IMG/VR virus record: IMGVR_UViG_2698536573_000001
Location: 1-11,202 of that record
From: a virus
Lineage: Monodnaviria > Loebvirae > Hofneiviricota > Faserviricetes > Tubulavirales > Inoviridae
Length of the DNA: 11,202 nt
Reading direction: 5' to 3' (one strand)
Position numbers and translations under genes: made by a program
The notes under the pieces: model-generated
The model's input: only the letters and a program-made list of their open reading frames with translations
What the model was told of the DNA's origin: nothing
Database searches by the model: none
In this document: in pieces, positions 1 to 11,202 of the stretch
Layout of the letters: every line of letters begins with the position of its first letter
How positions within the stretch are numbered: position 1 is the stretch's first letter

Positions 1-384
1 TTACCTAATTTCCTGAGTTTCGAGGTAATCTTTCAACACCGTAAAAGTGAAAGCAGATTTGCTTATGCAATGATCAGTTGCCAAAGACCACGCATGGAGT
101 ACCCCAGGAACCTGAGCTGGACACTTGGCAGATGCATAATGGAAGCAAATATATTTGATTAATTGGTTGCTGATTTTATCCTGACGAAAGTGGGCATAGC
201 AGCGGCTTCCTGAATAATCGAATACCCAACTGTCACTTGTTGAGCTGATATATTTGTCATCAAAATGATCTGCCGATTTAAGATAAATACTAACTGGTAT
301 ATTAACCTTTAAAATACTCTCAACAAATACAGGTGTGTAAATGTTGCTGTTCGACGCATTTAACTGTTTATTGATTCGACTCAT
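1..384 (-). CDS. hypothetical Cys/His-rich protein, co-oriented with and overlapping the 3' end of the recombinase gene
   Basis: ORF track frame 1..408. I place the start at the ATG at 382..384 (MSRINKQ...) because GGAG lies 6 nt upstream on the minus strand; the ATG at 406..408 has no Shine-Dalgarno. It overlaps the recombinase stop (368..370) by 17 nt, suggesting an operon. Several Cys/His residues in the C-terminal half; no family recognised. Confidence 0.4.
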   Translation of the reverse strand: MSRINKQLNASNSNIYTPVFVESILKVNIPVSIYLKSADHFDDKYISSTSDSWVFDYSGSRCYAHFRQDKISNQLIKYICFHYASAKCPAQVPGVLHAWSLATDHCISKSAFTFTVLKDYLETQEIR

Positions 385-1834
385 ATGCACTCCATTCATC
401 GCATACATGGGAAAAGGTTGATTTCAGGGCTTCGTTATCAATCACAATTCGCTGAAGATTGGCCGTATTAGCCTGCTGAGATAGAAATCTTTTAGCGTAA
501 AGATCAGGCATATGGCTATTGTGACTCCAACCGCCAAGTAGCCGTAATTCATCCTTGGCTTCATCCATCAATCCAACGATAGAAAAGTCTATGGCTGCCA
601 AGTGTGAGTTGGCCTTAATTTTTTGAAGTTTATCACGATAAATACGTTGAAGTGTTAAATAAGCCCAAGTATGCCGCGTTATATGAGGCGAGATGCTTTC
701 AATGGCATCATAATATTCATCTTTTTTATATTCAGGATACTGCACACTCATAATGTCATCAATACGGGTAAAGATATCATAGACTGCATGGTATGACAGT
801 GGCGGATGTAGTCTTTGGGTGGAAGTGAACAGAAAACTATGGGAGGCTTGAGGGCGGATTTTATGGATATATATATTTAGAAAATGAAAGTCCAGTTTAT
901 CTAATGCCAGCACCCGGTTTGCATAAACATTTTTTAATGAAGGCAATCTTTTTCGTTGATCCGAAACGTCGTCATCTACTGTGGTCACAATCAGGCTGAA
1001 CTGATCCCCTCGGAGATTTGGTTTGATCGAATGACACTCCAAAAGCAGTAATTCACTGACACGCAATCCGTAATTTAAAAGCAATCTGCAAATCAGAAAA
1101 TTACGTAGCTGGATTTCACCAGCGGGGAAGGGATTGAGTGGGTTTTTCTTTGAAATTGAACCGGGTGTAATGATTTGGTAAAAAGCCATGACCATCTCAG
1201 CAGTCAGACTTCGAAAGCGTTTATGGGTCGTGCCATTGTTCATCTGACGAGAATGGGTAAGAGTACGGAATTCTGCCTTATGTATCGATAAACGTCCCGT
1301 TAACTGCGTGGCAAGTCGTGTAAGCTCTTTAGGCGTGCCATCTATATATCTCGGCGAGATATACGTGTTAATCAAATATCTGATAAAACGAATAACCGAA
1401 TGTACATGCCTGATATTTGTACAACGTTGAGGCGTGGTCTGCGTAGTAGACCTTATGGTTAACGCTGGTACATATAAATGCGTATTTTCCAGATAATGAA
1501 AAAAGGCTGTAAGTTCATCAATGGCAATCAATGGATTGTGGTTCGAGGAATAGAAACTGAAGCAAAAAGTCACACCATGTTTCTGGTGCCAGAATTCATA
1601 GAAAAACTTGAGCGCTTGAAGTGAAGCGGATTGCGTGGCTGATGAACGCAAAGCAAGATGGTCGATAAGATATATTAACGGATATAAAAGCGGCTGGCGC
1701 GTGTGAGTATCCATCAGTGCCCATAAACGCTGCCGTTGGTTGATATTGAGTTGTGTAAGTATGAACACGCGGCACTTAACCTTATCAATGGTGTGGATAT
1801 GAACAAAGTAACCGACAAACATAACGTCCTGCAA
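368..1834 (-). CDS. tyrosine-type site-specific recombinase (phage-integrase family) with a long unassigned N-terminal extension
   Basis: 488-aa ORF. The C-terminal half carries the ordered tyrosine-recombinase signature: Arg in GLRVSELLLL, His-x-x-Arg in HITRHTWAY, then LGGWSH and the catalytic Tyr in MPDLYAKR. The first ~250 aa are unassigned. Track start is TTG at 1832..1834; the first ATG is 1820..1822; neither has a clear Shine-Dalgarno, so the start is uncertain. Confidence 0.75.
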   Translation of the reverse strand: MQDVMFVGYFVHIHTIDKVKCRVFILTQLNINQRQRLWALMDTHTRQPLLYPLIYLIDHLALRSSATQSASLQALKFFYEFWHQKHGVTFCFSFYSSNHNPLIAIDELTAFFHYLENTHLYVPALTIRSTTQTTPQRCTNIRHVHSVIRFIRYLINTYISPRYIDGTPKELTRLATQLTGRLSIHKAEFRTLTHSRQMNNGTTHKRFRSLTAEMVMAFYQIITPGSISKKNPLNPFPAGEIQLRNFLICRLLLNYGLRVSELLLLECHSIKPNLRGDQFSLIVTTVDDDVSDQRKRLPSLKNVYANRVLALDKLDFHFLNIYIHKIRPQASHSFLFTSTQRLHPPLSYHAVYDIFTRIDDIMSVQYPEYKKDEYYDAIESISPHITRHTWAYLTLQRIYRDKLQKIKANSHLAAIDFSIVGLMDEAKDELRLLGGWSHNSHMPDLYAKRFLSQQANTANLQRIVIDNEALKSTFSHVCDEWSAYESNQ

Positions 1835-1913
1835 GAAGAAGATAGAGGGGTAGGTAAGTGTATGATTAATCGTATCCTGTGGCCGGTTATGAACTAAATG
1901 ACCGACGGACTAA

Positions 1914-1941
1914 ATTTAACATAATATACATTATGCGCACC
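1914..1941 (-). other. dif: dif-type XerC/XerD recombination site: XerC arm 1931..1941, central region 1925..1930, XerD arm 1914..1924
   Basis: Plus strand reads ATTTAACATAATATACATTATGCGCACC. Its reverse complement is GGTGCGCATAATGTATATTATGTTAAAT, which matches the E. coli-type dif sequence as I recall it at 28 of 28 positions (GGTGCGCATAA / TGTATA / TTATGTTAAAT). Confidence 0.85.
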
Positions 1942-2081
1942 AATGGTAAGGATGGCAGAATCTGGCGGGAATCGTTGACACTGGCCGTCAACTGGCTACT
2001 ATCGACAGTGATTCAAAATCATCCGTTTCTCCAAACGAATCAGAATCAAATGTCTGTCAGCAGTAAGTGAACGGCCTGACC

Positions 2082-2330
2082 TCACCAATCAGGCCTGTTC
2101 ATCCAGTTAGTTGGTAAATCTGTACCTGATACACGAGAATCAAACACCACTTCTTCAGTGCCATCACCATGATGCCGGATAATCTGGTAACCGGATTGCG
2201 GGTTCTGGCTCTCAGCTTCATAAGCAGCCCGGAATGCTGGATCTTTGAGAAGCATCACTTTCAGCTCCTGATGTGTCATGAATTTTTCCATGATAAGCCC
2301 CGATGAATGCTGCCGCGCCGAATCAGCCAT
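2082..2330 (-). CDS. hypothetical small protein (cargo position between secretin and dif)
   Basis: 82-codon ORF co-oriented with the phage operon. No convincing Shine-Dalgarno at the first ATG (2328..2330); internal ATGs at 2289..2291 and 2277..2279 are alternative starts, so the real product may be ~65-69 aa. The segment ELKVMLLKDPAFRAAYEAE resembles N-termini of some antitoxin-like regulators, but no HTH follows. Coding status uncertain. Confidence 0.35.
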   Translation of the reverse strand: MADSARQHSSGLIMEKFMTHQELKVMLLKDPAFRAAYEAESQNPQSGYQIIRHHGDGTEEVVFDSRVSGTDLPTNWMNRPDW

Positions 2331-2452
2331 AACGCTGAAAATGGAAACTGTACGGCTTGGCCAACCCCGGACAGCAACAAAACAAGTTTTGTCACTGACC
2401 GGCGTTATCTTTCAAAACAGACAGTTAACGATTTTTTGTCTGGTGTTTATGC

Positions 2453-2479
2453 GTGAAATTTCGTGCGTACGAAATTCAC
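2453..2479. repeat. 27-bp imperfect palindrome at the 3' end of the basic-protein ORF
   Basis: Arms GTGAAATTTCG (2453..2463) and CGAAATTCAC (2470..2479) pair with one bulged base around the centre TGCGTA. No U-tract follows on either strand, so it is unlikely to be an intrinsic terminator; more likely a protein-binding or recombination-related site. Confidence 0.5.
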
Positions 2480-2724
2480 CACCAATAAACAAACGGACGA
2501 TGACTGACCGGAAAAGCAATGCCGTCAGCATCATGACCACGCATTACCTGATTGAGAAGCCTTCTGACTTCACGGCGCTCAGGCCTGGTCATCATCATAT
2601 TGCGATACCAGGACGGCGATTTATCAAACCATCTGGCACAACTGGCAAAATGTGAACCTACACGACGATAAGACTTAAGGCGGCCACCGGGAAGTCGGTC
2701 ACGCGCCTTATTTTTTACAGACAT
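2476..2724 (-). CDS. hypothetical small basic (Arg-rich) protein, possible DNA-binding accessory protein
   Basis: 82-aa ORF. ATG at 2722..2724 with GAGGA 7-8 nt upstream on the minus strand. Same orientation as the phage operon, 88 nt downstream of the secretin stop. Arg/Lys- and Trp-rich; no family recognised. Confidence 0.5.
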   Translation of the reverse strand: MSVKNKARDRLPGGRLKSYRRVGSHFASCARWFDKSPSWYRNMMMTRPERREVRRLLNQVMRGHDADGIAFPVSHRPFVYWW

Positions 2725-2812
2725 AATAAATCCTCTAAGTAACTGAATACCTAGAAGATGTCGTACTGTTCATACCCCATAAAAGTTAACGCCATAATAA
2801 AAATCCATACAA

Positions 2813-4057
2813 TCAGTTCAGGTTGTCCCGGAACAGTTCACCGCTCCTCGCGGCGCTGCGGGGCGTCGCCCTGCTCCGGTCAACCTTTCTGACCTGAAGC
2901 ATCACCATAATATCAGTCTTGTTGCTTTCACTGGTACGGGAACCGAAGAAGCTCCAGCCGGAACTGGCCTTACTGTCTTTCTGTTCAGCAAGGCCACCAA
3001 GTAAAATAATATCACCATCTGCAAGGCTGACTTCGGTTGTTACATCACGCTTGATAAGGGTTGGCGAGTTATTGACGCCGGTTTCAGTGGTCACAAAGTT
3101 GGAAAGCTGCTGCTGAATCTTGAGATCCATTGTCCGACTTTTGATTGATGGCGTTACGTTAAACAAAACACCGCTGGAACGATATTCAACGGATTGCGTG
3201 GTCGTATTGTTATTCACCGTAACACTGCCCAGTACTGGCACATCAGAGCCGACTGAAAAAGACGCTGAGGCATTATTTTTTACCCGTAGTCGTGGCGCAC
3301 TGACAACAGTAAAACGACTGTCGGTTTTAAGCAGATTGAAAATGGCATCAATGGAGCCGGTTCGAATATTGATAAAATTATCCAGTCCGGCAGCACCAAC
3401 TGAAATATTGAATTTATCAGACAGAATTTTAGCCGCTAAAAGAATGCCGGAGCCGTCAGACTGCGAGGTCTGAACCTCAAAAACATAACCAGAAACAACC
3501 ACTTCATCACTCATCGTATCCAGCGAAGTGACCAGTGTTTTCAGGATGGCGATATCCTCTTTCGTACCATAATAAACCAGAATATCACCGGTTCGATTAA
3601 TGTAGTTGCTTGCCCCTGATGAACCTTTTAGCGAATCGTCAGAAATCACGGCTCCACTGTTATTGAAGGAGCCTGAAACGTAGCCGCCAAGAATATCAGA
3701 CAGGTAGGCAACAGAACGGTACTGAGGCGTATAAGTCCATGTATAACGTGGCTTAACCGGCTCTTTCGGCGTATAGGGCGCGATAAAATCAACACCCTTT
3801 TTCGTCCATATTCGAATGTTCATATTGCCAAGATAACGGGTTACAAATTCCCGTTCATCAATATCAGGTGTTAACCTGAATGTAATCATTCGTTCATCAT
3901 TAACAAGCTGTGGATCTAGCATATACGGGACTTTAAGCACCTCACTATAAATAAGAGAAATAGCCTCCGGTAGCTTGACTTTATTTAATTCAAGCTCTGA
4001 CCCTGCGAAAGCACATGAAGAAAATAGTAGCGTTAATGCGAGTAAAATCTTTTTCAT
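2813..4057 (-). CDS. secretin, filamentous-phage pIV-like outer-membrane export channel
   Basis: 414 aa. N-terminal signal peptide MKKILLALTLLFSSCAFA. C-terminal secretin-domain hallmarks (SAPRLRVKNN..., PTLIKRDVTTEVSLADGDIILLGGL). ATG at 4055..4057 overlaps the Zot-like stop TAA (4057..4059) by 1 nt, indicating translational coupling. Confidence 0.9.
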   Translation of the reverse strand: MKKILLALTLLFSSCAFAGSELELNKVKLPEAISLIYSEVLKVPYMLDPQLVNDERMITFRLTPDIDEREFVTRYLGNMNIRIWTKKGVDFIAPYTPKEPVKPRYTWTYTPQYRSVAYLSDILGGYVSGSFNNSGAVISDDSLKGSSGASNYINRTGDILVYYGTKEDIAILKTLVTSLDTMSDEVVVSGYVFEVQTSQSDGSGILLAAKILSDKFNISVGAAGLDNFINIRTGSIDAIFNLLKTDSRFTVVSAPRLRVKNNASASFSVGSDVPVLGSVTVNNNTTTQSVEYRSSGVLFNVTPSIKSRTMDLKIQQQLSNFVTTETGVNNSPTLIKRDVTTEVSLADGDIILLGGLAEQKDSKASSGWSFFGSRTSESNKTDIMVMLQVRKVDRSRATPRSAARSGELFRDNLN

Positions 4058-5082
4058 TATTTTTTCCCCGTATAAAGCGTCACACGCTCACCATCAATAA
4101 TTCCGCTCATCAACATCCCTTTGTAATTAAAACTGGATGCAGGAACGGCACGCAAAACACCGGCACCGTTAACAAGAATCACAAACGCCCTGCCTTCACT
4201 GGTCATTCTCCCTGATATACGCCACTCGGTTGAAAGTGGCGGTTCAGCTGGTTCTGAGGGAGTATCTGGTGCTGGAGTAGCAGCGGAAGAACGAAACATG
4301 GCCGCATCACGTACATCTGTTGTAGCCAAATCTGGCGAGGGATCGCTTCGGCCAAACGTGCTGAAAAATGAGTAAATCAGCCAGCCTGACCCGATAAACA
4401 TCAATGGAAAAAGCACAAGAAAGAACCTGACTTTGCCAGAATTCCAGATGCTCTGGCGTTTATCTGTCTGCTTTTCATTACCGTTATTTCCTTCATAGCT
4501 TTTATAAAGTTCAAAAATATCAGGGTTATATTTATTGCGATAACTGGTGACGAGGTTGCTTTTATAGATTTTGTGGCCTGAATATACGTCAATGCAGTAA
4601 TGATTATTCAGGCCCAACGCTTTCAGCTTGCGCATCCGGTAAGTTGTTTCTATTTTGTCTTTCAGAAAGCGAGCAATATTAGAAAGTGACTGATTTACAA
4701 TAACCAAATCACAGCTAATACCCGTTTCAGGGTGCGTAAAATGACGATGTTCAGCAATAAATGATTTCTTCTCAGCCGTCATATCCTTATCGCTACCGAA
4801 GATTCGCCATGCTTCATCAATAACAATTAAATCACCAAACTGGCAAAAGCTCCCTTCCCCACCTTTAAAAGGAAAGAAATCTGCTTTAAGCACATCATCA
4901 TTATCCACAACAATAATTTCTCCCGTTGCATCAGGATAACGTTCGGTGATTTTATCTTTTTGTAAACCATAAATGTTCGTCACAACTCTCCGGCCGCTGG
5001 TAAATGCAGGAATAATGACATTGCAAACGGCTTCATAACTTTTTCCTGAGCCGGGTATGCCAATATATGCAGAAATAGCCAT
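4057..5082 (-). CDS. Zot-like assembly ATPase (filamentous-phage pI family)
   Basis: 341 aa. Walker A GIPGSGKS at residues 8-15, Walker B-like LIVIDEAW, and a single transmembrane segment (FFLVLFPLMFIGSGWLIYSFF) before a Pro/Ser-rich C-terminal region, as in pI/Zot. ATG at 5080..5082 lies 3 nt after the upstream gene's stop. Confidence 0.9.
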   Translation of the reverse strand: MAISAYIGIPGSGKSYEAVCNVIIPAFTSGRRVVTNIYGLQKDKITERYPDATGEIIVVDNDDVLKADFFPFKGGEGSFCQFGDLIVIDEAWRIFGSDKDMTAEKKSFIAEHRHFTHPETGISCDLVIVNQSLSNIARFLKDKIETTYRMRKLKALGLNNHYCIDVYSGHKIYKSNLVTSYRNKYNPDIFELYKSYEGNNGNEKQTDKRQSIWNSGKVRFFLVLFPLMFIGSGWLIYSFFSTFGRSDPSPDLATTDVRDAAMFRSSAATPAPDTPSEPAEPPLSTEWRISGRMTSEGRAFVILVNGAGVLRAVPASSFNYKGMLMSGIIDGERVTLYTGKK

Positions 5083-5085
5083 AAC

Positions 5086-5373
5086 TCACCCTATAACAGG
5101 AATACGTCGAATAATAAAACGAGTAGCCATTGCGGAGATAATCATACTAATCCCCTGTGGTAATTTACTCAGGTTAATGAAGTACCAGAATCCGTCTGAT
5201 AAATTGGCAAACAGCGATGAGAGATTGCTTGAATCTGGCAGTAACTCAACAAGGATTTCAACGAAGCCCTGGACTACAAAATACAGCGCAAAGAATACGA
5301 CGAATTTAATAATCAATGACCGGAATACAAAACCTAACAAAGTATTTAATGCACTAATCAGAATCCCAAACAT
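5086..5373 (-). CDS. minor coat protein, pVI-like
   Basis: 95-aa hydrophobic protein with multiple TM segments, located between the pIII-like and pI genes as in Ff phages. Strong RBS AAAGGAG 7 nt upstream of ATG 5371..5373. Assignment rests on position and composition. Confidence 0.6.
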   Translation of the reverse strand: MFGILISALNTLLGFVFRSLIIKFVVFFALYFVVQGFVEILVELLPDSSNLSSLFANLSDGFWYFINLSKLPQGISMIISAMATRFIIRRIPVIG

Positions 5374-5385
5374 AGTTGCACTCCT

Positions 5386-7098
5386 TTAGGCACTCAGAAT
5401 AATACGGAGCGCAACAAATCCCCATATAATCAGAAAAATGGTTTCTACGGCGCTTCTGTTCTGCTCAATTAACGGACAATGGGAGTCAATTCTGTACTGG
5501 TGATTAAACACGCTGAATTCAACAACGGGGCAGGATGCTGAACGAGAGCCGATGTTAAATTCGTTTGTAAAAGGCAACAAGTTAATAATTGGCGTTAAAA
5601 TATCTCTTGCCGTTGGCGTTTCTTCAAGCTCAGGCTCTTTTACACCGGGATCTTCTCCCAAATCTATATTGCCATTATTTCCAGTGTCAGACCCTGAGTT
5701 GTTATTAATGGTAATATCAATATTGACGTCAGCCCCTGCACTGTCAGATACAGGTGAAAGCATATCTAATAACGTTGGAGATAGCCTAAGTTCCGACATC
5801 GCAGAAGTTACTTCAGCCGGTGAAACCTCTTTAAACGGTAAGCCGTTATAATCGGCATTAACGGCAGCTTCAGACCACAGCTCGTTAATCATGTCGGCAA
5901 GAAGTGCTGGCGATACACTAACACTATCAAGATACTCCAGATAATCAATCATGGACTCAATATTTCCGGCCTCCAGTACTTCCGTCATGGCTTTATATTT
6001 GGTATTGGTCCAGATAGTAAGCTCACTCTTTTCATCAATATCTTTTGCGGTGTAATCCTCTTTTTCAGGAACGGCGCAAATCGTCGAATATCCACCATTT
6101 GACTGATTAGTCGTTTTACAAGGCGTGTTGTGATACTGATATTGCTTGCCTGCTGTTAAATAAGCAACGCTGTAATACATGGGAAGCCCTGCTACATTTT
6201 CATACATGGGAATACCTGCGGGAAATGAAGATGCGGCCGGGTTGCTATACAAGTGTGTAATCTCAGGTATTTCATAAAATGAGGAAGGATAAGTAAACTT
6301 ATAATTCTGTTCAGTAAAGGATACATCTCCATTACTGTTGACAACTTTATTCGTCACAGTGCGTTCAAAATTCGTTAGTGTTTCAGTATAAGTACGCGAG
6401 TTATAGTCATTAAGATAATTTCTGGCAATTTCAGTTGGATTATCACCATAGTAATAAATTAGCTCTTTCGAATCCTGATAATAATAAAGCGCATTATCTG
6501 GCGTGGAATATCCTGTTTCAACACCTACAACTGGAGAACCCGCATCCACATTATTACGACTAACATGAAGGATTACCGGACTTAATTCCTGTGGTTCAAA
6601 ATTAACGGTTATCGTCTTACTTTCACCACTTTGACCACTGTACGTTACTTCATATAAATTATCGGAAATCTTTTTACCGTTAGTCATTACCATTACCGAG
6701 CCGTCAGATGAACTCAAAGAAGACGGAACAAAAGATGATACAGCAGCAGCAATACCCGCCCACGTTGCAACACCGCTCATTTTGTATGATGAGGCAGCAG
6801 GCAAGTATTCGGCAGCATTAGCCGCAGCGCGGCCAACAAAAACACGGGTTGCTGTAAGCTGTGATACCGTATAAATCGCATCATTGGCAGCAAAGCGACG
6901 AACAAGCACCCGGCCAACGACTTTAGGAATAACAGCCCGCGCAGCCACTGCTGCAATTGCTGGTACAAATGAATATGAATATCGGGGAAAGGAAACCCAG
7001 AGAAAGGAAAAAATAAAGGAATAAACCGTCAGCCTCTTAGCCCAAGAATAACGACATAAGCTGAGACGATCCCCCATAAAAGGGAACCCAATTTCCAT
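5386..7098 (-). CDS. adsorption / minor coat protein, pIII-like
   Basis: 570 aa. Gly/Asn-rich linker (NNNSGSDTGNNGNIDLGEDPG), C-terminal membrane anchor (TIFLIIWGFVALRIILSA), position directly after the major coat gene. GGAG 8 nt upstream of ATG 7096..7098. An internal Met at 6778..6780 begins a signal-peptide-like stretch (MSGVATWAGIAAAVSSFVPSS), so the true N-terminus is uncertain. Confidence 0.65.
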   Translation of the reverse strand: MEIGFPFMGDRLSLCRYSWAKRLTVYSFIFSFLWVSFPRYSYSFVPAIAAVAARAVIPKVVGRVLVRRFAANDAIYTVSQLTATRVFVGRAAANAAEYLPAASSYKMSGVATWAGIAAAVSSFVPSSLSSSDGSVMVMTNGKKISDNLYEVTYSGQSGESKTITVNFEPQELSPVILHVSRNNVDAGSPVVGVETGYSTPDNALYYYQDSKELIYYYGDNPTEIARNYLNDYNSRTYTETLTNFERTVTNKVVNSNGDVSFTEQNYKFTYPSSFYEIPEITHLYSNPAASSFPAGIPMYENVAGLPMYYSVAYLTAGKQYQYHNTPCKTTNQSNGGYSTICAVPEKEDYTAKDIDEKSELTIWTNTKYKAMTEVLEAGNIESMIDYLEYLDSVSVSPALLADMINELWSEAAVNADYNGLPFKEVSPAEVTSAMSELRLSPTLLDMLSPVSDSAGADVNIDITINNNSGSDTGNNGNIDLGEDPGVKEPELEETPTARDILTPIINLLPFTNEFNIGSRSASCPVVEFSVFNHQYRIDSHCPLIEQNRSAVETIFLIIWGFVALRIILSA

Positions 7099-7162
7099 AA
7101 TTCAATCTCCATAATAACCTCAAGTAAAACGGGCGATATTGCATCGCCCATGAATAATGAAT

Positions 7163-7396
7163 TTATGCGGATTTAACGGTACGCAATACCCAGCGAACGC
7201 CAGCGACACCGGCATAAAGTGTTACCAGTGAAGCAGCAACGGCCATAATCGCAACCAGAACTGTACTGAAATCAATGCTGTTCGTCAGCGGCGATAAATC
7301 AACACCACTTGATGCCGCTCCTTCTGCAGCGAAAGTCGCGCCAGAAACAGCCATTAATGCAGGTACAGCCAGAAAACTAACGATTTTTTTAAACAT
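7163..7396 (-). CDS. major coat protein, pVIII-like
   Basis: 77 aa. Signal peptide MFKKIVSFLAVPALMAVSGATFA, then an acidic/amphipathic N-terminal part, a hydrophobic helix (VLVAIMAVAASLVTLYAGVAGV) and a basic C-terminus (RWVLRTVKSA). GGAG 9 nt upstream of ATG 7394..7396. Confidence 0.75.
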   Translation of the reverse strand: MFKKIVSFLAVPALMAVSGATFAAEGAASSGVDLSPLTNSIDFSTVLVAIMAVAASLVTLYAGVAGVRWVLRTVKSA

Positions 7397-7430
7397 AACT
7401 CTATCTCCATTACATTTTAAAGGTTCGCAT

Positions 7431-7682
7431 TCAAGCAGTACGAACCATCTTTATTACCTGTCCCACACCTACAGAAAAAAGCCAGAGCAGCAGGACAGAG
7501 CCAAAACCTAATGTCCAGTAATTTCCCATTGCAGAATAATCAATTTGATGAAATGGTTCAGAACGTACCATTATTGCCTGACATTCTTTTGCATTGTTCG
7601 CATTACATAAATAACCTTCAATACGGTAACCATTTTCAGGAATATGATTATCAAACTGAATATCGAAACCTGATGTATCCAT
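7431..7682 (-). CDS. small membrane protein with C-terminal TM helix and basic tail (minor-coat-like, pVII/pIX position)
   Basis: 83 aa. C-terminal hydrophobic helix (WTLGFGSVLLLWLFSVGVGQVI) followed by KMVRTA. The start ATG (7680..7682) lies 2 nt from the upstream gene's TGA stop (TGATTATG). Confidence 0.5.
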   Translation of the reverse strand: MDTSGFDIQFDNHIPENGYRIEGYLCNANNAKECQAIMVRSEPFHQIDYSAMGNYWTLGFGSVLLLWLFSVGVGQVIKMVRTA

Positions 7683-7684
7683 AA

Positions 7685-8002
7685 TCAGCCTTTTATTTCA
7701 GTAATGCCGCCATCTGATGAAATGTTATAAGTTACTCCTTCCCTCCCCTCCATTGACCAGACGCGAACATATACAGGTATCTGGACTAACTTACCGATAA
7801 AATTATTTGCCTGATTCATTACACCGGCATTAACAAGAGCCTGAGATACACGAATAATAATCTGGTCTTGCTTAGTGCCACCAAAACCATCAGGAATCTC
7901 TAAGCCAACACCAATTTCATTATAGTATCCCTGACCATTGACCTTATTACGCTGGCGAGCACCAAGCATTTTACCTTTTACAAAAAGACCATAATTAGAC
8001 AT
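7685..8002 (-). CDS. putative ssDNA-binding protein (gV / RstB position)
   Basis: 105-aa ORF immediately downstream of the replication initiator. Strong RBS AAAGGAGAG 4 nt before ATG 8000..8002. Functional call is by position only; I see no clear similarity to Ff gV. Confidence 0.4.
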   Translation of the reverse strand: MSNYGLFVKGKMLGARQRNKVNGQGYYNEIGVGLEIPDGFGGTKQDQIIIRVSQALVNAGVMNQANNFIGKLVQIPVYVRVWSMEGREGVTYNISSDGGITEIKG

Positions 8003-8013
8003 ATCACTCTCCT

Positions 8014-9066
8014 TTAATGCCAGTTACTGGCATGTGAAATACGGTTATAATCGAAAATTAAACCTTTCTCATAAACCCATGATGGAATTTTGGCTGGTTT
8101 GGCTTCAAGAGTACGAACCAACGGAACAACGTTATTAGAATCCGGTGACTCACAATAAAAGTTAATATCTATTCCGAAAGAAAGTAATTCTTTACGGTGT
8201 CGGTAGAATGTAGGTTTCGGTAACATCTCTTTCATGTTCGCGCCCTGCTTCCACAATAAATATGTAGACTGTATTTTTCTTGGGAGATTAATTATTTTTT
8301 CATCAGTTAATATGGTATTTTGATTCATTTCTATTCTCCCTACATAGTCAGAGAATAATTTATTGGGCGTCTCAATATTCCAGCTATTACCAAGCGTAAG
8401 ATTCAAATCAATTAATTCAGTTGTTCTTAATGTTAATTCAATGCGTAATTTATCTTTTGACCAGTCCAGTAAACCAGCTTTAACGAATTCGTCTGCCATC
8501 TGGTGCCCTTTTTTGCCAGATGTATGCTCATCATATTTTGAATAAAATTTCAGGCTCCAACGACGGGAGTTTTTCCCTAAGTAAACAGTGCCACCTTTAC
8601 CACAGGCGCGACCGTGGCGAGTTTTAGCTTTAAATTCTGCGGCATATAACCATGCGCGGACATTTTCTAATGTTGACAATGAATACATGTAATTGATATC
8701 GATGCGCGAGATCTTAAATTGCCCTTCCATGACCTGCCGATAGGATGGTAGATCATGAGGAATATGCAGTAATGCCAATATTCTGGCGTAAGCTGTTAAC
8801 ACCAACCCTTGCAAATCGTCGGAACCGATAACAGAGTGACCTTGCAAAAACTTTGATGGATTACCGTCAATGTAGAGATGTGTTGCCCGACCTTCACCAT
8901 CAGATCCAACAGACCTTACTTTCATTGTGGACTCATGCGAACCGCGAACTGTCAACCGTTTTACTGTTTCCCACTCCACTGCACCGTCAGCATCGACGCT
9001 GACGACACTACCAGCCGGTAACGGTCGGTGTGTGCAAGGCAGGATTCCGGTAAACCAGTCGATCAT
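8014..9066 (-). CDS. rolling-circle replication initiation protein, filamentous-phage gII family
   Basis: 350 aa. Starts MIDWFTGILPCTH. Shares motifs with Ff gene II protein as recalled from memory (not verified): LQGHSVIG vs LQGHNVFG, ISRID, and NNVVPLVR near the C-terminus. Confidence 0.85.
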   Translation of the reverse strand: MIDWFTGILPCTHRPLPAGSVVSVDADGAVEWETVKRLTVRGSHESTMKVRSVGSDGEGRATHLYIDGNPSKFLQGHSVIGSDDLQGLVLTAYARILALLHIPHDLPSYRQVMEGQFKISRIDINYMYSLSTLENVRAWLYAAEFKAKTRHGRACGKGGTVYLGKNSRRWSLKFYSKYDEHTSGKKGHQMADEFVKAGLLDWSKDKLRIELTLRTTELIDLNLTLGNSWNIETPNKLFSDYVGRIEMNQNTILTDEKIINLPRKIQSTYLLWKQGANMKEMLPKPTFYRHRKELLSFGIDINFYCESPDSNNVVPLVRTLEAKPAKIPSWVYEKGLIFDYNRISHASNWH

Positions 9067-9237
9067 AAGTAGTCACACCCATCAAAATATGTGTCAATAG
9101 TCATTTGTGAGCAGATTGAATGGTCACAATGTAATATGCTCAGATCTGACAGTCAATACATTTGCAATGTTTAAATTGTCAGAAATGAGCATCAAATCTA
9201 ACTATTGAAAAACCACTGTTAAGATGGAGCCAAGTAG
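9067..9237. promoter_or_regulatory. divergent control region between the replication gene and the repressor gene (candidate operators, promoters or origin)
   Basis: 171-bp intergenic region with no ORF. Repeats: TGAGCA at 9108..9113 and 9186..9191 with inverted copy TGCTCA at 9137..9142; 7-bp inverted repeat TCTGACA (9145..9151) / TGTCAGA (9177..9183); direct repeat GTCAATA at 9094..9100 and 9152..9158. Promoter hexamers not assigned with confidence. Confidence 0.5.
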
Positions 9238-9684
9238 ATGGGCAACAATGAGCATGAAGTTATGGCGGACAAACAGAGAGCAGAACGTATCAAAAAGGTA
9301 ATTCTGGAACACTCGACTTATGAAGAACTGGCCGAGAAGACTGGCATTAGCGTGAGTACGCTGGTCAGGATAGCGTCCGGCAAAACTGAACCTAAATTCA
9401 GTGACATCATTCAGATAGCTAAAATTACTGGTGCAGACTTAAACACCTTAGCTTATGGCTATGCTCTTGATGTTAAAGAAGAAGCTACCGAGCGGAAGCT
9501 AATCACTTCTGCGGATGGATATACTGATGAAGAAACCACTAACGCACATAATTTCATCGTGTGGAACATCAGGACACTGGAAAAACAAGATATTCTGGCA
9601 CTCGCAAGGCAGGTTTCTGCCTTAAGTTCATACACTTACAGTACTAAAATGTTTATGAAAAAAGCGGTGTCTGGAGAAGAGTAA
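9238..9684 (+). CDS. HTH transcriptional regulator (XRE / Cro-C1 type), phage repressor-like
   Basis: 148 aa. Predicted helix-turn-helix in the N-terminal third (STYEELAEKTGISVSTLVRIASGKTEP). GGAG 8 nt upstream of ATG 9238. Divergent from the replication gene, as for filamentous-phage repressors. No Ser-Lys peptidase (LexA-like) motif in the C-terminal part. Confidence 0.8.
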   Translation: MGNNEHEVMADKQRAERIKKVILEHSTYEELAEKTGISVSTLVRIASGKTEPKFSDIIQIAKITGADLNTLAYGYALDVKEEATERKLITSADGYTDEETTNAHNFIVWNIRTLEKQDILALARQVSALSSYTYSTKMFMKKAVSGEE

Positions 9685-9712
9685 AAGGATTAACAGTCTC
9701 AGGAATGAGACA

Positions 9713-9751
9713 AACGTGCAGTATTACCAACACTGCACGTTCTTTATTGTG
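9713..9751 (+). terminator. intrinsic terminator-like hairpin downstream of the repressor gene
   Basis: Perfect 10-bp stem AACGTGCAGT (9713..9722) / ACTGCACGTT (9732..9741) with a 9-nt loop, followed by CTTTATTGTG (interrupted T-run). Confidence 0.6.
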
Positions 9752-9783
9752 CGAGTTTTGAATAGCGAAAAAGGATCAAAAGG

Positions 9784-10206
9784 ATGAGTAGAAATAACGA
9801 AACAAGCGGCGTTGAACTGGTTGTCGTGGGCGTATTTGCTTTCTGTCTGGCAGTTGTTGCCTGGCTAATGAAAACTTTCGATGTTGAATGGCAAACAGCA
9901 CTGGAAACTGCGCCTGGCCTGATAGTCTGGTTGCTTGTTGTCGGTGCGGGGATCTTTTTCGGGATCAAAATGGAAACTGGTCTTGTTCGCTGGGGTGCTC
10001 CACTTGCGATCGCCCTTCTGATTCCGGTATTCAAACCAATTCTTAAGGAAGCAGCCGGAGTTCGTGAAATGGGCGGGTTAGTTTTCGATGATATGGTTTC
10101 GTGGTACGGAACTGGCTGGGGAATGTCGCTGATGTTCTTCGGGATTCTTATCGTCGGATACGGCCTACTTTATTGGTGGCACAGAAGAAAGTCATATTAC
10201 TGGTAA
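9784..10206 (+). CDS. small integral membrane protein (about four TM helices), function unknown
   Basis: 140 aa with four hydrophobic segments (about residues 11-29, 45-62, 70-85, 112-131) and a Trp/Tyr/Arg-rich C-terminus. ATG 9784 preceded by AAGGA. Co-oriented with the repressor. GC content resembles the phage core. Confidence 0.6.
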   Translation: MSRNNETSGVELVVVGVFAFCLAVVAWLMKTFDVEWQTALETAPGLIVWLLVVGAGIFFGIKMETGLVRWGAPLAIALLIPVFKPILKEAAGVREMGGLVFDDMVSWYGTGWGMSLMFFGILIVGYGLLYWWHRRKSYYW

Positions 10207-10317
10207 CTCCGCCGCGGGAAACCACGGTAAAGTTCGGGTGTCACTGAACCCCGAACCGCAAGCGGTTAAATAGCAATCAACTATAGAGAGTAAGTCAAAA
10301 CATATAAGGGTTAAATA

Positions 10318-10785
10318 ATGACAGTATCTCTTGGCGATGTGTTTGGTGGTTTGGCGTTTTTTCTCTCAATCTATGCAACAATTAAAACCGTAAAGTTCAA
10401 TGAAAGACAAAAAGCGTTAATAGAAGCGCAAGAAAGGTTAACGAATCTCCAACTTACTAAAGAAAAAAATGAGTTGGAAAGTTCAAAGAAAGCTGATATT
10501 AGTGCAAGCATGGTCTCTGTAGGAAATAGAGAATATAAACTAAGAGTTATTAATAAAGGGAAGGTTTCTGCGAAAAATGTAAGAATAGAATTTCCCGATA
10601 ATAATTCACCAGTATCAATGAGTGACGTTAAAAGCAAATTTCCGCTTGAGTATCTCGCGACAGATCAACCAGTCGATCTCATTGCGTCAGGAGAGTTAGG
10701 TCGAGCAAGGAAATTTACTGTAAGACTAATGTGGGATGACGATTTCAAGGATGATAATGAAATTGTTTTACATATAACATATTGA
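10318..10785 (+). CDS. hypothetical membrane-anchored protein (N-terminal TM helix, predicted coiled-coil, C-terminal beta-rich domain)
   Basis: 155 aa. N-terminal hydrophobic helix (LGDVFGGLAFFLSIYATI), then a charged helical stretch (ERQKALIEAQERLTNLQLTKEKNELESSKK). AAGGG 7 nt upstream of ATG 10318. AT-rich codon usage, distinct from the phage core. Confidence 0.55.
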   Translation: MTVSLGDVFGGLAFFLSIYATIKTVKFNERQKALIEAQERLTNLQLTKEKNELESSKKADISASMVSVGNREYKLRVINKGKVSAKNVRIEFPDNNSPVSMSDVKSKFPLEYLATDQPVDLIASGELGRARKFTVRLMWDDDFKDDNEIVLHITY

Positions 10786-10830
10786 TTTAAATACACTTTA
10801 TATCGAAGCAAAACAAGTAGAGGAGTAAGG

Positions 10831-11202
10831 ATGAAAAATCAACTTTATAGCCGTCAAGGAATATACGACATAATCAGAAGCCACTATTTAAGAAACTTTC
10901 CATATACGATTGAATTTGAAGCGCTTAATGCAATAAATGAACACATTAGCCTTATAATTGATAGCGCATCAATACAAAAAAATGAAAGTGGTGAGTACGT
11001 ATTTATCAATAATAATCCTAATATGGAAGTTGATGACCCATTTGAAAGCACAGAGAGAAATCTTGCTGCTTATCTATCAAAGTCTAGTGGTGTTGAAGCG
11101 TTATTCCAAGATGTGAACGCATTACAAAAATGGTTGCTCCAATATGGATTTATCCATGGTGGTATAGCGACTGAAAAAATGCTGGTTACGAATAAACTAT
11201 AA
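10831..11202 (+). CDS. hypothetical soluble acidic protein
   Basis: 123-aa ORF ending with TAA at the window edge. Strong RBS GGAG 5 nt upstream of ATG 10831. Same AT-rich composition as the preceding gene and 45 nt downstream of it, so probably co-transcribed. Confidence 0.55.
   Translation: MKNQLYSRQGIYDIIRSHYLRNFPYTIEFEALNAINEHISLIIDSASIQKNESGEYVFINNNPNMEVDDPFESTERNLAAYLSKSSGVEALFQDVNALQKWLLQYGFIHGGIATEKMLVTNKL

Follow-up and report, generated by a model that had tools for sequence, protein, structure and literature searches.

[quoted passage not shown] This view is based on the structure of all three prophage junctions, the empty site in a prophage-free relative, the fold of the phage attachment region, and the conserved architecture of that region among related loci. 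The RefSeq record carries no annotation for dif, for the prophage borders, or for the attP site, and the main use of the analysis lies in annotation; it may also help work on the function of variable phage cargo.

The dif site and its chromosomal setting

The E. coli dif 28-mer GGTGCGCATAATGTATATTATGTTAAAT is matched at window positions 1914 to 1941 on the minus strand, 28 of 28 positions with 0 mismatches. No second dif-like match with up to 3 mismatches was found in the window, and a match occurred in 0 of 200 dinucleotide-preserving shuffles. The site has the parts of the enterobacterial dif, namely, an 11-bp XerC arm, a 6-bp center, and an 11-bp XerD arm, and E. coli K-12 dif is listed with the identical 28-mer (PMC2731167). 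All filamentous-phage genes lie to the right of dif and the XerC arm is its rightmost part, and hence it is this arm that faces the prophage. A reading made earlier from the sequence alone had identified the 28-mer as the reverse complement of the enterobacterial dif, placed it about 140 bp past the last small open reading frame (ORF), and turned its XerC arm toward the phage. Our data bear this out in every part: the match is as given above, the ORF ends at 2082 and the XerC arm at 1941, and the plus-strand coordinates of the arms leave the XerC arm (1931 to 1941) next to the phage genes. The features of the region are as follows, with genomes introduced in the text below.

1 to 1834 (L001 16004-17768; L051 1079-11763), on the XerD-arm side of dif: two adjacent tyrosine-recombinase genes, annotated as site-specific integrase, one of them cut by IS1
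1914 to 1941, minus strand: dif, the XerCD chromosome dimer-resolution site (exact 28/28 match, single copy, same place in strain 99-3165)
1914 to 1924, 1925 to 1930, and 1931 to 1941, in plus-strand coordinates: XerD arm, 6-bp center, and XerC arm of dif
1942 to 11202, minus strand: copy 1 of a CUS-1/Ypf-phi-type inovirus prophage (unit of 9357 bp, cut by the window about 96 bp before its end)
2082 to 2279, minus strand: small dif-proximal ORF (phrog_6642, 1e-53), at the position of ctxAB in CTX-phi
2476 to 2724, minus strand: second small ORF downstream of the secretin gene (ORF call, annotation)
2813 to 4057, minus strand: pIV-like secretin (Pfam Secretin, 1.3e-24)
4057 to 5082, minus strand: pI/Zot-like assembly ATPase (Pfam Zot, 2.2e-26)
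5086 to 5373, minus strand: DUF2523 protein at the position of the minor coat protein pVI (Pfam DUF2523, 1e-20)
5386 to 6948, minus strand: large ORF at the position of pIII, the receptor-binding protein (phrog_3942, 3e-252; annotation)
7163 to 7396, minus strand: major coat protein candidate (phrog_2186 virion structural protein, 4e-29; weak match to Pfam Phage_Coat_B)
7685 to 8002, minus strand: single-stranded DNA-binding protein G5P (Pfam Putative_G5P, 1.2e-52)
8014 to 9066, minus strand: pII rolling-circle replication initiator (Pfam Phage_CRI, 1.2e-73; G2P_X_C, 3.6e-34)
9238 to 9684, plus strand: divergent helix-turn-helix (HTH) repressor at the position of RstR in CTX-phi (Pfam HTH_3, 1.6e-9), a position also held by YPO2273 (PMC4266046)
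10212 to 10259, no strand assigned: If1-like 48-bp element that bounds the variable cargo slot on the left (95.8% identity with part of the phage If1 major intergenic region)
10318 to 11202, plus strand: strain-variable cargo, ORFs of 155 and 123 amino acids (phrog_6723, phrog_22661), with the attP hairpin beyond it, outside the window
11205 to 11298 in window-equivalent numbering (L001 27205-27298), inverted pair: sites A and B (attP), read from the source genome outside the window

Since the replication and assembly genes lie on the window minus strand, we take this to be the packaged (+) strand, on the model of other filamentous phages. Among the listed major ORFs of the prophage, scans with Pfam, NCBIfam, and PHROG detected no integrase or recombinase, and the ORF at 2476 to 2724 matched no family in the Pfam and PHROG scans. 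At the dif-proximal end, two ORFs of unknown function beside attR have also been described for Ypf-phi (PMC4266046). The ORF at 5386 to 6948 is a candidate for puvA of CUS-1 by its position, which is named in the same review (PMC4266046). The If1-like element corresponds to positions 5058 to 5105 of the If1 record and is the sole DNA-level match of the whole window in the phage collection. Its predicted fold is no better than that of shuffled sequence (z = -1.3), and for this reason we give it no role; a minus-strand origin or a packaging element would be guesses.

Window positions 1 to 2100 are 100% identical to the chromosome of the enterotoxigenic E. coli (ETEC) O6:H16 strain M9682-C1 (NZ_CP024275.1), where the order is marRAB ... 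ydeA, a yneK fragment, IS1, a truncated integrase gene, an integrase gene, dif, two prophage copies, hipA, and hipB. The two prophage copies are identical and stand in tandem between dif and hipA with a period of 9357 bp. Many related ETEC genomes align to the window only as far as position 1944. One of the relatives, 99-3165, is prophage-free and reads integrase, dif, AATATAAACCAAGG..., hipA, the chromosomal stretch directly after dif being AATATAAACC; identity with this strain ends at 1944 and not at 1941 because the AAT that follows dif is common to phage and chromosome. Among E. coli, a 30-mer consisting of dif plus AA occurs at 4801 places in 4801 records (4800 of 5426 genomes), exactly once in every record that carries it. 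Because it is single in each record, the window dif is the sole dif of the M9682-C1 chromosome and lies at the ancestral dif locus. That locus adjoins hipBA in 99-3165, UTI89, MS8345, and WCHEC4533 alike, and we take it to be the replication terminus, as in E. coli K-12.

The surroundings of the locus have been rearranged in M9682-C1. A segment of about 47 kb (NZ_CP024275.1 1656771-1705229; L052, L003, and L001), which comprises dif, the prophages, hipBA, and the lsr operon, runs opposite to the order in UTI89. The edges of this segment are two inverted IS1 copies that split yneK, and the window lies inside it; 99-3165 has the junction of yneK fragment, IS1, and integrase that is found at one end of the segment. 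Since dif is located near one end, the inversion should largely preserve the polarity of the flanking sequence toward dif. In strain 90-9280, the integrase pair forms the dif-proximal end of an island that also encodes a ThiF/MoeB-family protein, an HNH endonuclease, and a restriction endonuclease. The integrase island is present in about 139 genomes, independently of the prophage.

Prophage junctions and the paired attachment sites

The window ends at 11202 with the stop codon of the last cargo ORF, and in the source genome the 96 bases that come after it (L001 27203-27298) hold two inverted dif-like sites around a GC-rich stem-loop. Site A reads GGTTCGCATAA-TGACG-TTATGCTAAAG and has a 5-bp spacer between its arms, while site B, on the other strand, reads GGTGCGCATAA-TGTACGACTCG-TTATGTTGAAA and has an 11-bp spacer, with a perfect XerC arm followed by TGT as in dif. 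At the junction between the copies in M9682-C1, site B leads into AATGGTAAGG..., just as dif does in the window, and this opens copy 2. Where copy 2 ends, the region of site A, loop, and site B gives way directly to AATATAAACCAAGG, which is chromosomal as in the empty site, and then to hipA. In the orientation of the window, the full layout is thus chromosome, dif, copy 1, site A-loop-site B, copy 2, site A-loop-site B, chromosome.

An intact dif is accordingly rebuilt at one prophage end only, and the hipA-side and inter-copy junctions have the 11-bp spacer. The host center TGTATA and the XerD arm stay with the left flank, and the phage 11-nucleotide center and XerD-like arm stay with the hairpin. 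From this layout, the crossover must fall within the 15 bases common to dif and site B, that is, the XerC arm GGTGCGCATAA plus TGTA. The XerD arm and at least the last two center bases (TA) of the window dif continue the chromosomal flank. The XerC arm (1931 to 1941) would be phage-derived after integration, which we infer rather than read directly because the XerC arms of host and phage are identical in E. coli.

When folded as single-stranded DNA, the 111-nucleotide region on the phage (+) strand gives a hairpin with a predicted free energy of -33.2 kcal/mol, compared with -12.5 +/- 2.6 for shuffled sequences (z = -7.98), and 0 of 200 shuffles did as well. In the predicted structure, which is forked, pairing between sites A and B creates a XerC arm, a center that is in part unpaired, with 11 nucleotides facing 5, and a XerD arm. 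On the window minus strand, site B reads 5'-GGTGCGCATAA^TGT..., which corresponds to the strand that XerC cleaves in dif.

The paired arrangement is not peculiar to this strain. Searching with pII, we found relatives among genome records that carry the labels Y. pestis, Klebsiella spallanzanii, Brenneria alni, Photorhabdus, and Phytobacter; two metagenome bins and 38 IMG/VR contigs yielded others. The pair of site B and site A is retained at about 20 related loci, Yersinia, Brenneria, Klebsiella, and Photorhabdus records among them, and in 9 of these loci the pair lies upstream of the cargo with an exact or near-exact dif beyond the secretin gene. Thirteen distinct hairpins align to one structure, in which 7 of 34 predicted pairs are kept through changes on both sides, and the hairpins of Klebsiella and of locus L008 have unrelated loops and still fold with z values of -6.6 and -8.3. 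In other hosts, the hairpin-side junctions begin with AGTG, AGTA, GATG, or GGTT and the downstream dif with GGTG or GGTT, a pattern among prophage-flanking sites that is compatible with the model and does not by itself show which XerC arm came from the host. The XerC arm of the Brenneria-type phage is GGTTCGCATAA, the GGTT arm, which is also given for dif in Pectobacterium atrosepticum, a bacterium related to the Brenneria host (PMC2731167), so that the phage site appears to track the dif of its host. Some relatives (L010 3811-3840 and 7258-15596; L022 666-5720) have an extra dif-like or hairpin site a few kilobases upstream of a CUS-like prophage, which suggests that different Xer-dependent elements form stacked arrays at a single dif.

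Integration mechanism and competing explanations

We propose that in the packaged single strand the inverted sites A and B would pair to form the forked hairpin, with its XerC arm, partly unpaired center, and XerD arm, and that XerC would carry out a single strand exchange between the folded DNA and dif where the XerC arm meets the center. Replication would then convert the intermediate into a double-stranded prophage. On the secretin-gene side, the product would be an intact dif composed of the phage XerC arm, the host center, and the host XerD arm (window 1914 to 1941), and on the hipA side it would be a junction that is not a dif, composed of the host XerC arm and the whole hairpin region. 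If the circular strand is cut at the position marked ^ above and inserted into the top strand of dif, the expected junctions are exactly those observed. The rebuilt dif would still serve in dimer resolution and could accept another integration, leaving the locus open to further arrivals, and this would explain the tandem pair. From such a pair, rolling-circle replication could regenerate a complete phage genome with its hairpin, as in CTX-phi. Like CTX-phi, for which the single-strand hairpin mechanism is established, the phage would use a single-stranded substrate, rely on XerC as its only catalyst, and leave resolution to replication, and the tandem pair would have the role just described; the attP sites of CUS-1 and Ypf-phi are described in the same paper as having features for direct single-strand integration (PMC3089051). 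Our search of the literature returned no experimental test of whether CUS-1 depends on XerC/XerD in E. coli. One published observation is not predicted by the simple integration model: superinfecting Ypf-phi favors the junction between copies (PMC4266046).

The structure of the prophage fits a single-stranded hairpin and a double-stranded site B alike, since both give identical junctions. In a double-stranded route of the VGJ-phi type, the replicative form would recombine with dif through duplex site B, XerC would exchange one pair of strands, and replication would resolve the product, the whole process being reversible. All three junction sequences would come out as in the hairpin model, and site B does provide a perfect XerC arm followed by TGT, matching dif. 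In duplex form, however, the arm spacing would be unusable, since dif has 6 bp between its arms whereas site B has 11 and site A has 5, and the single duplex attP with dif-like arm spacing that marks the VGJ-phi type is not what we find. Moreover, an inverted pair whose pairing is conserved through compensatory changes matters only if the strand folds, and reviews assign CUS-1 and Ypf-phi to the CTX type and not to the VGJ type (PMC4246890). Because the duplex spacers are wrong for XerCD and the pairing between the sites is conserved, we rank the double-stranded route below the hairpin and consider it improbable.

The location of two annotated site-specific integrase genes within 100 bp of dif could point to a different machinery, in which the two tyrosine recombinases of window positions 1 to 1834 inserted the prophage and its nearness to dif is coincidental. 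Yet these genes lie on the opposite side of dif from the phage, one of them is truncated by IS1, and the phage junctions fall exactly at the XerC arm. We rejected the neighboring integrases as the integration machinery, as they are present beside the empty dif of prophage-free 99-3165 and absent from the loci of UTI89 and MS8345, which nonetheless have the same phage at dif; the chance that they were responsible seems negligible. A similarly slight chance attaches to the idea that the window copy of dif is phage-borne and decorative and that chromosome dimers are resolved elsewhere. The probable phage origin of its XerC arm would suit that idea, whereas the presence of one dif 30-mer per record, the dif at the same locus in the prophage-free relative, and the 11-bp spacer of the hipA-side junction, which is not a dif, all speak against it. 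Integration of a folded single strand at the one chromosomal dif is therefore the explanation that we favor.

The cargo slot and comparison with known elements

The cargo beside the hairpin varies among prophages that are otherwise nearly identical, as seen in the window, UTI89, Y. pestis, and AB_24_S34. In the last of these, a CUS-1 variant (L057 5084-6013), the slot is occupied by a gene of the abortive-infection (Abi) family, and the slot may be a hotspot for defense or exclusion genes. In the window, the slot (10302 to 11202) has as its left flank the If1-like element (10217 to 10259), which is located where homology to UTI89 ends (about 10228), and as its right flank the site-A hairpin of attP.

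The same two flanks bound the passenger slot of transporter insertion sequences of the IS1202 family (ISNCY) that target dif. The site-A hairpin segment (window-equivalent 11194-11275; L001 27194-27275) recurs on chromosomes and large plasmids of E. coli, with about 94% identity and in 857 of 5426 genomes, 479 of its places being on plasmids, and all copies that we opened lie inside IS1202-family elements, beside dif or plasmid dif-like sites (L053 6337-9131; L054 2288-5120; L055 552-7170). This family is known to target dif-like sites, inserting at a distance of 5 bp from the XerC arm (PMC10132070; bioRxiv 10.1101/2022.12.17.520857). The parts of such an insertion follow in the order Xer site, AACAT, left inverted repeat, transposase, a stretch of 43 bp with 91% identity to window 10217-10259, one or more passengers, site A with stem-loop and TTTTCAACATA, right inverted repeat, and AACAT. 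The possibility that the plasmid hairpins are fossil phage integrations was rejected, as they sit inside IS1202-family elements with inverted repeats and the 5-bp duplication. Passengers include candidate genes for defense against phages, namely, those for a SIR2/ThsA-like protein (PADLOC PDC-S25, 2e-82) and a weakly PDC-S32-like protein (4e-9). Plasmid pVTB777v-1, which has an array of three IS1202-family elements separated by the 5-bp duplication AACAT, carries homologues of both window cargo ORFs at 81% nucleotide identity. With more doubt than conviction, we suggest that two unrelated kinds of dif-exploiting element swap a common gene cassette, probably through recombination in their shared flanks, in which case the window ORFs at 10318 to 11202 would also be defense or exclusion genes. 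We found no mention of phage in the IS1202 preprint (bioRxiv 10.1101/2022.12.17.520857). The sharing of flanks between the two slots is a by-product of this work that may be new, and it is the only item that may merit separate follow-up.

The identity of the prophage itself is clear from comparison with UTI89 and with Y. pestis, together with a review of Ypf-phi. UTI89, whose serotype we take to be O18:K1:H7, carries a prophage that is 99.4% identical to the window over positions 1945 to 10228 (8.3 kb) and has the same gene order, an identical dif junction, an attP hairpin with one base changed, and the same chromosomal site beside hipA. This corresponds to CUS-1 of E. coli O18:K1:H7, which goes back to Gonzalez et al. 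2002 in the form cited in two later papers (PMC4266046, PMC2731167). UTI89 differs in its cargo, a single ORF of 369 amino acids (L004 14370-15479) as opposed to ORFs of 155 and 123 here, and on the XerD side, where it has fimbrial and SDR genes and no integrases in place of the integrase island and IS1 inversion. The tandem pair of the ETEC O6:H16 strain likewise sets it apart from UTI89 CUS-1. MS8345 has the same cargo as the window and also a tandem pair, the same arrangement in a different chromosomal context.

The Y. pestis prophage Ypf-phi (CUS-2) is 99.5% identical over 7.8 kb (window 1927 to 9762) and shows the same inter-copy junction at its own locus, but it has other cargo ORFs beyond the repressor gene (window 9763 to 11202) and a host of another genus. 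Ypf-phi has been reported to be 99% identical to CUS-1 over 7.1 kb, to integrate at dif and restore an intact dif at its 3' end, to form tandems of two to four copies, and to have inverted XerC/XerD binding sites like those of CTX-phi (PMC4266046). Together with CUS-1, it is tabled among the CTX-type relatives, with a first exchange by XerC, completion by replication, and irreversible integration (PMC4246890). Given core identities of 99.4% and 99.5%, we regard the prophage as CUS-1/Ypf-phi with a different cargo module.

The sequence-only reading had named this kinship, and the identities confirm it. That reading had also proposed Xer-mediated (IMEX-type) entry at dif by a phage with no integrase of its own, a proposal now supported by the empty site in 99-3165 and by the lack of a recombinase in the scanned prophage ORFs. 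Two things lay beyond its reach: the paired attP, situated just past the window, which marks the subtype as that of CTX-phi, and the presence of the prophage as a tandem pair. It had further pointed to two places where it might fail: a functional dif elsewhere, of which there is none, each record having one dif 30-mer, and the state of prophage-free relatives, of which 99-3165 has a single dif at the equivalent junction between integrase and hipA. Since reviews already describe Ypf-phi and CUS-1 at dif and as CTX type, the dif call was a correct recognition of published biology and is already known. Our analysis adds nothing on how dif is exploited, and the differences lie in the host lineage (ETEC O6:H16) and in the cargo module at the hairpin end. 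In other words, an ETEC O6:H16 strain has at its terminus a tandem CUS-1-type prophage whose cargo is unlike that of the uropathogenic and plague versions.

Nucleotide similarity between CTX-phi and the window prophage is undetectable, yet the two are alike in many respects. Both are without an integrase gene, have two inverted dif-like sites that fold in the (+) single strand, cross over on the XerC side, rebuild dif at one end, form tandem arrays, and possess a divergent repressor gene and accessory genes downstream of the assembly genes, beside the rebuilt dif. They differ in the stem-loop between the sites (about 90 bp in CTX-phi versus about 35 nucleotides here) and in the cholera toxin cargo of CTX-phi, and the window prophage has its own secretin gene. 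In 90-9280 (L051 18082-22080), a related prophage is followed by at least 3 tandem units of 1831 bp consisting of pII, a regulator, and a G5P fragment, which resemble the RS1 satellites of CTX-phi. The VGJ-phi-type and TLC-type integrative mobile elements exploiting Xer (IMEXs) also integrate at dif by means of host XerCD, but they do so through a single duplex attP, in contrast to the paired inverted sites with 5- and 11-bp spacers found here, and TLC begins with a XerD exchange and not with the XerC-side crossover seen here. The comparison thus supports classification of the prophage as a CTX-type IMEX of the CUS-1/Ypf-phi lineage.
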